From the sequence record PQ666542: a DNA stretch of 64,000 bases, one strand, 5' to 3'. A model generated the notes under the pieces. It had not been told where the DNA came from and did not search any database. It saw only the letters and a list, made by a program, of their open reading frames with translations. A program made the translations under genes and the position numbers. How positions within the stretch are numbered: position 1 is the first letter of the stretch; every line of letters starts with the position of its first letter. Shown one piece after another: positions 45,020 to 46,832 of the stretch. This DNA is from Shigella phage sb4.

Positions 45020-46832
45020 TGGTGTTTAACCCTATGCATGATTTCTTTATTTTTGCCAAGATTAAATCCACGTTCGTTCGGATTTCCTAAATAACCGCTA
45101 GTTCTTCTTATTGTGTTCATCTTTTTAGGATCAGTTTCTCCACAAATAGAACAAACAAATCCGTTTTCAGTAGGAGTCATTACATGTGTACTTCCACATG
45201 TAAAACACTTATCTACTGGCATATTACCGCCAAAATAATCTAAATGTTGTGCAGCATAATCCCATACAGCCTCAAGACCTTTTAGGTTATTTTTCATATC
45301 AGGAAGTTAACAAAAGAAATGTGTCCACCTGTCGCAATGAAATGATACGGTGCTTCGCGAGAAATCATTTCAAACGGGGTGATATTTTCTTCTACTGAAA
45401 CATGGAAACTGTTAGTGTACCAGCCTTTATCAGTAACATCCTTTACACATCCATATTTTTTAGTATCAAGTTTACAGAAGCGATAACAAAGGTTTTCAGC
45501 AGGAGTAGAATACAAGCTAAAAGCAAAACCAGTTCTTTCAGACCACTGCTTAAGACGAGCATTCATTTTAGTTAAAATTTCCTGTCCAATATTATGTCCG
45601 ACAAGAATATTCAATTCGTGAATTCCATTGTATCCCAAAGACACTGAACTTCTACCTTTTTTAAATAACTCAATTATGTCGTCATCAGGTTTAAGACGAA
45701 CCCCGAATGCACCTTCTTGGTAAAGAATATGAGCTACAGTTGCTTTAACACCCTTTAAATAACTAATTCTACACATCAAGGCTTCAAAACACAAATCCAT
45801 TCGTTCATTAAATAGCTCAACAAATTTCTGTTCATTGAACTGTGTTCCAATATAATAATCTAACGCAATACGAGGAAGATTCAGTGTTACAACACCAAGA
45901 TTATTACGTCCATCAAGAATATCATGAACAGTTGAATCTTCCCATACACTCAAGAAACTACGACAGCCCATTGGAGAAACAGGAATAGATGAGCCGGTGA
46001 TAGCTTTATTGTTCTTAGCTGAAATAATATCAGGATACATTCTTTAGCTTGCACACTCTAGAGCAAGCTGCTTAATATCATAATTTGGATCGTATTTATA
46101 AAGATTAACACCTTCTTCAACGAACATAACAAGTTTAGGGAAAATAGGAGTTATCCCATCACGACCAAGACATTTGATACGATTTTTCAGAATTGCTTTC
46201 TGAATCATTCGTTCAGTCCAGTCAGTTCCCGTACCAAATGTAATTGTTACAAAAGGCGTTTGTCCATTTGAACTAAAGAGAGTATTTTGTTCATATTCAT
46301 AAGCTTGGAATGCATCGTATACGTCTTTTTCTGTTTTAGATTGGGCGTAATTCAACGCATCAGCGATTTGCCATTTTTCTGCGTCCTCAATATGTTTTGC
46401 ATAGGTGCGTTTAACATAAGGAGAAAGTACTTTATCTACATTCGCAAAAGTCGTTCCGCCATATTGATGAGAAGCAACCTGTGCAGTAATTTGTGCCATA
46501 ATTGCAGTAGCAACGCCGATTGATTTAGGAGTTTCAATCTGCGCATTACCGAGCTTAAATCCGTTCTCAAGCATTCCTTTTAAATCTACTAAACAGCAAT
46601 TAGTAAATGGAAGAGCAGGGGAATAATCAATATCATGGAAATGAATAATTCCGCTTTCATGCGCTTTCATAATAAAAGACGGGACCATATTTTTGGCAAT
46701 GTGTTTAGACACAATACCAGCCATAAGGTCCCGTTGAGTTGGAAAAACACGAGAATCTTTATTAGCATTCTCGTTTAAAAGGTCTTTATTAGTTTTATGA
46801 ATCAATCCTTCAATTTCTTTTTCAATTGTCAT
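45016..46832 (-). CDS. nrdD: anaerobic ribonucleotide reductase NrdD; in-frame TAA at 46044-46046 and frameshift near 45297-45312; no intron
   Basis: three track ORFs (262+248+93 aa) cover a 605-aa-equivalent span; C-terminal glycyl-radical-like RRTSGYLG. Confidence 0.85.

Follow-up and report, generated by a model that had tools for sequence, protein, structure and literature searches.

Why does nrdD, the gene for the large subunit of the class III anaerobic ribonucleotide reductase, contain an in-frame TAA codon in the sequence record of Shigella phage sb4 (PQ666542)? We examined this question in a 64,000-nt stretch of the record (hereafter, the window) by comparison with related phages. 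The window is collinear with the Tequatrovirus genomes pSs-1, sb1, and sb2, with coordinates that agree nearly base for base and a first base that is the same as that of pSs-1. It thus corresponds to the initial 64 kb of a T4-like (Tequatrovirus) genome. A 2051-nt query had its best match in sb2 (PQ666540; 97.6% identity), and about 90 other records matched at 95%–99%. The evidence presented below indicates that nrdD is almost certainly an ordinary intronless T4-type gene that was damaged by record-wide noise, and that the TAA is no biological feature.

nrdD is a single gene broken at two places

A preliminary description of the window had reported an in-frame TAA inside nrdD, flanked by two open reading frames (ORFs) that share a frame and are separated by the TAA and one codon. 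The sequence agrees: the TAA lies in the reading frame of one gene, the single intervening codon is AGA, and the first two ORFs are in frame (46832 − 46040 = 792 = 3 × 264). The two-piece picture drawn from this was correct about the split at the TAA but overlooked a second break, a frameshift at codon 509, so that the gene is in three pieces (Table 1).

All three ORFs match the Pfam family NRDD (PF13597), at profile positions 1–233, 236–476, and 480–562 out of 562, with scores of 222, 212, and 64 bits, respectively (gathering cut-off 26.2). Because these profile positions are contiguous, the ORFs are adjacent parts of one gene rather than ORFs that happen to lie side by side. The ATGA overlap that joins the second and third ORFs arises because the frameshift acts on the native ...GAT ATG AAA... 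sequence.

Apart from its private changes, the conceptual NrdD of the window is the same as the T4 and pSs-1 proteins. The motifs KCFTCG, VCSICG, and SPMGCRSF are identical to those of T4 and pSs-1; we take the CxxC ... CxxC pair to be the four-cysteine zinc site that precedes the glycyl-radical loop, and the SPMGC cysteine to belong to the active site. The Gly_radical match (E 7.2e-15) contains the motif RRTSGYLG, which retains Gly580 (T4 numbering), the radical glycine of the T4 enzyme, and in which Cys579 is privately replaced by Ser. The uninterrupted reading frame of about 605 aa is missing, owing to the TAA at codon 263 and the −1 frameshift at codon 509. Although this is an nrdD gene, its sequence as written is unable to encode the enzyme.

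Table 1. Features of the nrdD locus and selected stop codons elsewhere in the window (positions in the window)
Feature	Position	Strand	Remarks
nrdD (class III anaerobic ribonucleotide reductase, large subunit)	45016..46832	-	intronless; three ORFs of 262, 248, and 93 aa; Pfam NRDD
First nrdD ORF	46044..46832	-	262 aa; C-terminus ...LALECAS, then TAA at 46046..46044
Second nrdD ORF	45294..46040	-	248 aa; N-terminus MYPDIISAKNN
Third nrdD ORF	45016..45297	-	93 aa; glycyl-radical C-terminus; Pfam NRDD and Gly_radical
In-frame TAA in place of Lys263 (AAA in relatives)	46044..46046	-	T-to-A change at 46046 on the + strand
Single codon (AGA) between the TAA and the second ORF	46041..46043	-	
ATG of native Met265, listed start of the second ORF	46038..46040	-	relatives read ...CASKRMYPD...
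Private 1-nt deletion, G of GAA, codon 509	between 45309 and 45308	-	frame shifted
ATGA overlap	45294..45297	-	TGA of the shifted second ORF; ATG of native Met513 (start of the third ORF)
nrdG (radical-SAM activase of NrdD)	44549..45019	-	intact; Pfam Fer4_12 (E 2.9e-48) and Radical_SAM; nrdG in the annotation of relatives
Gene 49 (endonuclease VII)	46829..47302	-	upstream neighbor of nrdD; cut by a private TAA at 47104..47102
Stop in gp43 (DNA polymerase), codon 178, GAA to TAA	32043..32045	-	
Stop in gp44 (clamp loader), codon 245	33815..33817	-	
Stops in gp62 (clamp loader), codons 45 and 143	33454..33456, 33160..33162	-	
Stop in gp47, codon 59	38953..38955	-	
Stop in gene 49, Gln67, CAA to TAA	47102..47104	-	private; leaves ORFs of 66 and 90 aa; one 474-nt gene (157 aa) in relatives

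Relatives carry a lysine where the window has a stop

The window shares with T4 (NrdD structures PDB 1H78, 1H79, 1H7A, 1H7B, and 1HK8) the gene itself, its 605-codon length and numbering, and the order gene 49 - nrdD - nrdG; the pSs-1 protein aligns over residues 1–605 to the solved T4 chain (1H78 and others). In T4, nrdD is interrupted at codon ∼180 (window ∼46295) by a group I intron of 1033 nt that carries I-TevII, and mobC lies between nrdD and nrdG; the window lacks both the intron and mobC. The TAA is not a remnant of the T4 intron: the insertion site is 250 nt upstream of it, and nothing is inserted in the window when it is compared with intronless relatives. A search of Rfam at E ≤ 0.1 over 44000..48000 gave no match, and thus no intron family or known element.

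The nrdD genes of sb2, pSs-1 (NC_025829), and vB_SsoM_113 (LR746311) are intronless like that of the window, are 95.6%–97.6% identical to it in nucleotide sequence (2051-nt query), and lie in the same gene 49 - nrdD - nrdG neighborhood at near-identical genome coordinates. They differ in having one 1818-nt nrdD ORF with AAA at codon 263. Alignment to T4, which the preliminary description had proposed as a check, gave the same picture, with a continuous 605 codons and Lys (AAA) at codon 263 in T4 and its close relatives. The stop is thus one base away from the codon of these relatives (AAA to TAA) and falls within the motif CASKRMYPD, which is conserved between T4-like phages and bacterial NrdD.

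We compared the window with 11 near-full-length T4-like nrdD sequences taken from phage records, IMG/VR, and metagenomes. The site that determines the TAA is an A in 11 out of 11, the base deleted at 45309/45308 is likewise present in all 11, and nine have a single unbroken reading frame of 605 codons. Relatives with two genes at this place would have spoken for a natural two-gene nrdD, and we reject that arrangement: relatives have one gene, and the only splits are those in the records of KNP5 (NC_055713; stop at codon 327) and sb1 (PQ666539; stop at codon 481). In each of these two, a T4-type nrdD is split into two annotated coding sequences (CDS) by one nonsense codon, and neither lesion is common to the window. 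The KNP5 RefSeq record has nrdD at 419..2236 and is 193.6 kb long, which is unusual for the genus.

Extending the comparison, a degenerate pattern in which codon 263 was left open recovered 110 homologous places, with Lys in 105, Arg in three, Ile and Gln in one each, and a stop in none. This open-codon pattern served as a positive control for the corresponding TAA searches, in which exact and degenerate patterns had no matches in IMG/VR, the metagenome collection, or the GTDB genomes. The TAA at codon 263 is thus, among the sequences compared, private to the window.

The damage to nrdD goes beyond the two breaks. The gene has 22 private amino acid changes from 29 private nucleotide changes, compared to four from 44 in T4. 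Against the 11 T4-like sequences, the window is the sole exception at 22 otherwise invariant columns, all within nucleotides 661–1734, and 18 of its 21 singleton substitutions are transversions. The private nucleotide changes are unevenly spread, with one within nucleotides 1–540 and about 28 downstream of them.

Unselected stops and frameshifts occur throughout the window

The window was aligned with the initial 64.5 kb of the sb2 and pSs-1 genomes and, subsequently, with sb1, and the gene models of pSs-1 were applied. There were 36 in-frame stops (31 TAA, five TGA, and no TAG) and about six gene models with a net frameshift, leaving 31–33 out of 127–128 gene models broken. Affected genes include gp43 DNA polymerase, gp44, gp62 (two stops), gp47, gp52, dda, rIIA, modA, modB, and gene 49 (Table 1). 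Genes 43, 44, and 62 of T4 are essential for replication, and because all three carry stops, a phage with the genome as recorded could not be viable. The implication of the preliminary description that the nrdD stop is special is unsupported: the same gene has a second lesion and about 20 private missense changes, and about a quarter of the genes in the window, including essential ones, are similarly hit.

The stops replace codons for Glu, Lys, Leu, Gln, Ser, Tyr, Gly, Trp, and Arg; a single substitution turns each of these codons into a stop. Transversions private to the window are distributed over the three codon positions as 123/129/125. In 1000 random placements of the same types of transversion, the expectation was 41.6 ± 6.0 stops, against 33 observed; for TAA alone, there were 28 observed and 28.5 expected, and for missense changes 326 observed and 342 expected, with synonymous changes also close to random. 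The private transversions show essentially no purifying selection. The same figures lead us to reject the idea that stops were over-represented or planted, as nonsense changes occur as often as expected at random or slightly less often.

The spectrum of private changes is unusual as well. The ratio of private transitions to transversions is 0.9–1.1 in the window, compared to 2.7–3.1 in sb2 and 5.0 in pSs-1. The excess transversions are mainly T>A/A>T (201) and C>A/G>T (154) in the window and mainly C>A/G>T (292) in sb1, the latter resembling oxidative-damage artefacts. Changes that create TAG were rarer than random (one vs. 7.0 expected, P about 0.008) and made up two of 33 in sb1, which may reflect a context preference of the error process. 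We looked for a dominant sequence-context motif around the private changes as an error signature and found none. Five of the eight private indels (at 10, 16841, 18278, 20045, and 42926) fall in homopolymer runs (A7, T7, C, G), and such indels shift the frames of srd, modB, and mrh-like genes.

Sibling records show the same problem to different degrees

[quoted passage not shown] TMC4 corresponds to PQ666542, ADG1 to PQ666539 (sb1), and AKR2 to sb2; for all four, PCR-amplified libraries were run on an Illumina NovaSeq and the reads were assembled de novo with SKESA (PMC11993411). Predicted proteins number 285 in ADG1 and 291 in TMC4, and 254 in AKR2 and 255 in CDR3; G+C content is lower in ADG1 and TMC4 than in the other two (PMC11993411). 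By our count, the G+C content of the window lies between those of sb1 and sb2, in line with what the published values for TMC4 would lead one to expect.

The sb1 record, which stems from the same study as sb2, has a genome-wide excess of stops as in the window. It has 33 in-frame stops, of which 29 are TAA, alongside 439 private transversions, and 27 out of 127 genes are broken. In sb1, a TAA at another place (GAA to TAA, codon 481) interrupts nrdD, which was deposited as nrdD_1 and nrdD_2. The deposited annotation further lists the topoisomerase gene and dda in three pieces each, and rIIA, modB, gp41, gp43, gp46, and nrdD in two each. Only two stops are common to sb1 and the window, both in the small imm gene, and because so few are shared the lesions are independent between the two records, as expected of errors. 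The problem is milder in sb2, where the broken gene models number nine to 10 out of about 127; the sb2 DNA polymerase (29880..32576) was deposited as two CDS, with a stop at codon 197.

Explanations of the nrdD stop

The lesion in nrdD, its restriction to the window, and the random noise across the record are direct observations. To account for them, we infer with a probability of roughly 0.85 that the TAA and the record-wide noise are errors of sequencing, library preparation, or assembly and not changes carried by a viable phage. The TAA would then be part of a layer of roughly 400–500 unselected point differences and a few indels across the window, and no readthrough, recoding, or split enzyme would be needed to explain it. 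Three considerations weigh against a technical origin. The error spectrum, with its excess of A<->T and C>A/G>T changes and few TAG-creating changes, has no clear counterpart among known error processes. Illumina sequencing with de novo assembly normally gives an accurate consensus. Finally, the private changes are uneven along nrdD, and some private differences elsewhere are natural mosaic alleles. An example of the latter is a dense patch of differences from sb2, pSs-1, and vB_SsoM_113 at ∼43,630–43,760 (gene 55.6 region), which matches ESh16, ESh34, ESh36, and IME339 at 95%; we therefore reject the view that all private differences are noise.

A genuine nonsense mutation would make nrdD a real pseudogene, tolerated since the anaerobic reductase is dispensable during aerobic propagation. 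The T4 nrdD gene is indeed dispensable in air; the damage to nrdD in the window is of three kinds (nonsense, frameshift, and numerous missense changes, among them C579S beside Gly580), and nrdD is also broken in the KNP5 and sb1 records. However, stops and unselected transversions are equally dense in the essential genes gp43, gp44, and gp62 and in the window as a whole. nrdD is not singled out, and a genome with these stops would not be viable in the first place. We consider a real pseudogene unlikely, and we reject decay specific to nrdD, given the same lesion density in essential genes.

The sequence could instead have been altered or generated afterward, by in silico perturbation or as a reference-guided consensus built from very poor data. 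The almost perfectly uniform distribution of private transversions over codon positions fits this idea, as do a transition-to-transversion ratio near one, unlike that of biological mutation, and a genome start at the same base as pSs-1. On the other hand, the deposited GenBank sibling sb1 has the same defects, such that an origin in the real record is sufficient, and the indels in homopolymers (five out of eight) look like real sequencing or assembly errors. We regard later alteration as quite improbable.

It is very improbable that the stops and frameshifts are real in packaged DNA, which would imply a heavily mutated and largely defective T4-like population maintained via complementation, or efficient suppression of TAA and TGA, with the ochre codon at Lys263 of nrdD as one example.

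We give almost no credence to programmed recoding, whereby readthrough, reassignment of the TAA to an amino acid, or suppression by a phage tRNA would yield full-length NrdD. The strong skew of the stops to TAA (31 of 36) and the lack of TAG would fit such a scheme, but the TAA count equals that expected at random, and relatives have no fewer than nine different amino acids at the positions of the stops, which excludes reassignment of TAA/TGA to one residue. Furthermore, relatives never have a stop at codon 263 (none of the 11 T4-like genes and none of the 110 homologous places), the 111 nt of RNA 3′ of the stop fold no better than expected (z = 0.64, with 147 of 200 shuffles folding as well), and the frameshift at codon 509 would still truncate NrdD. 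The 64-kb window contains no tRNA gene; going by the T4 map, a T4-type tRNA cluster would presumably fall outside it.

A functional enzyme in three pieces, with translation stopping at the TAA, resuming 4 nt downstream at Met265, and restarting once more at the ATGA overlap of Met513, is hardly conceivable: a native ATG does follow just past each break, the second forming the overlap, but both ATGs are native internal Met codons, Shine-Dalgarno-like GGAG/GAGG is absent 5–10 nt upstream of Met265, relatives are never split at codons 263 or 509, and about 20 extra missense changes fall at otherwise invariant positions.

Implications for the use of these records

Because randomly located stops and frameshifts disrupt about a quarter of the genes in the window, split genes, in-frame stops, or pseudogenes found in it should be discounted unless they are common to relatives. 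The same caution extends to the sibling sb1 and, to a lesser degree, to sb2. Inflated gene counts in deposited phage genomes, here 285–291 as opposed to 254–255 proteins, reflect fragmentation and not biology.

The imm gene (29056..29307 in pSs-1) has two in-frame TAA codons in the window, at ∼29209 and ∼29290. Codon 35 is TAA in the window, sb1, and sb2; codon 8 is TAA in the window and sb1. Unlike the other stops, these two may have been inherited, or the pSs-1 gene model may be wrong.
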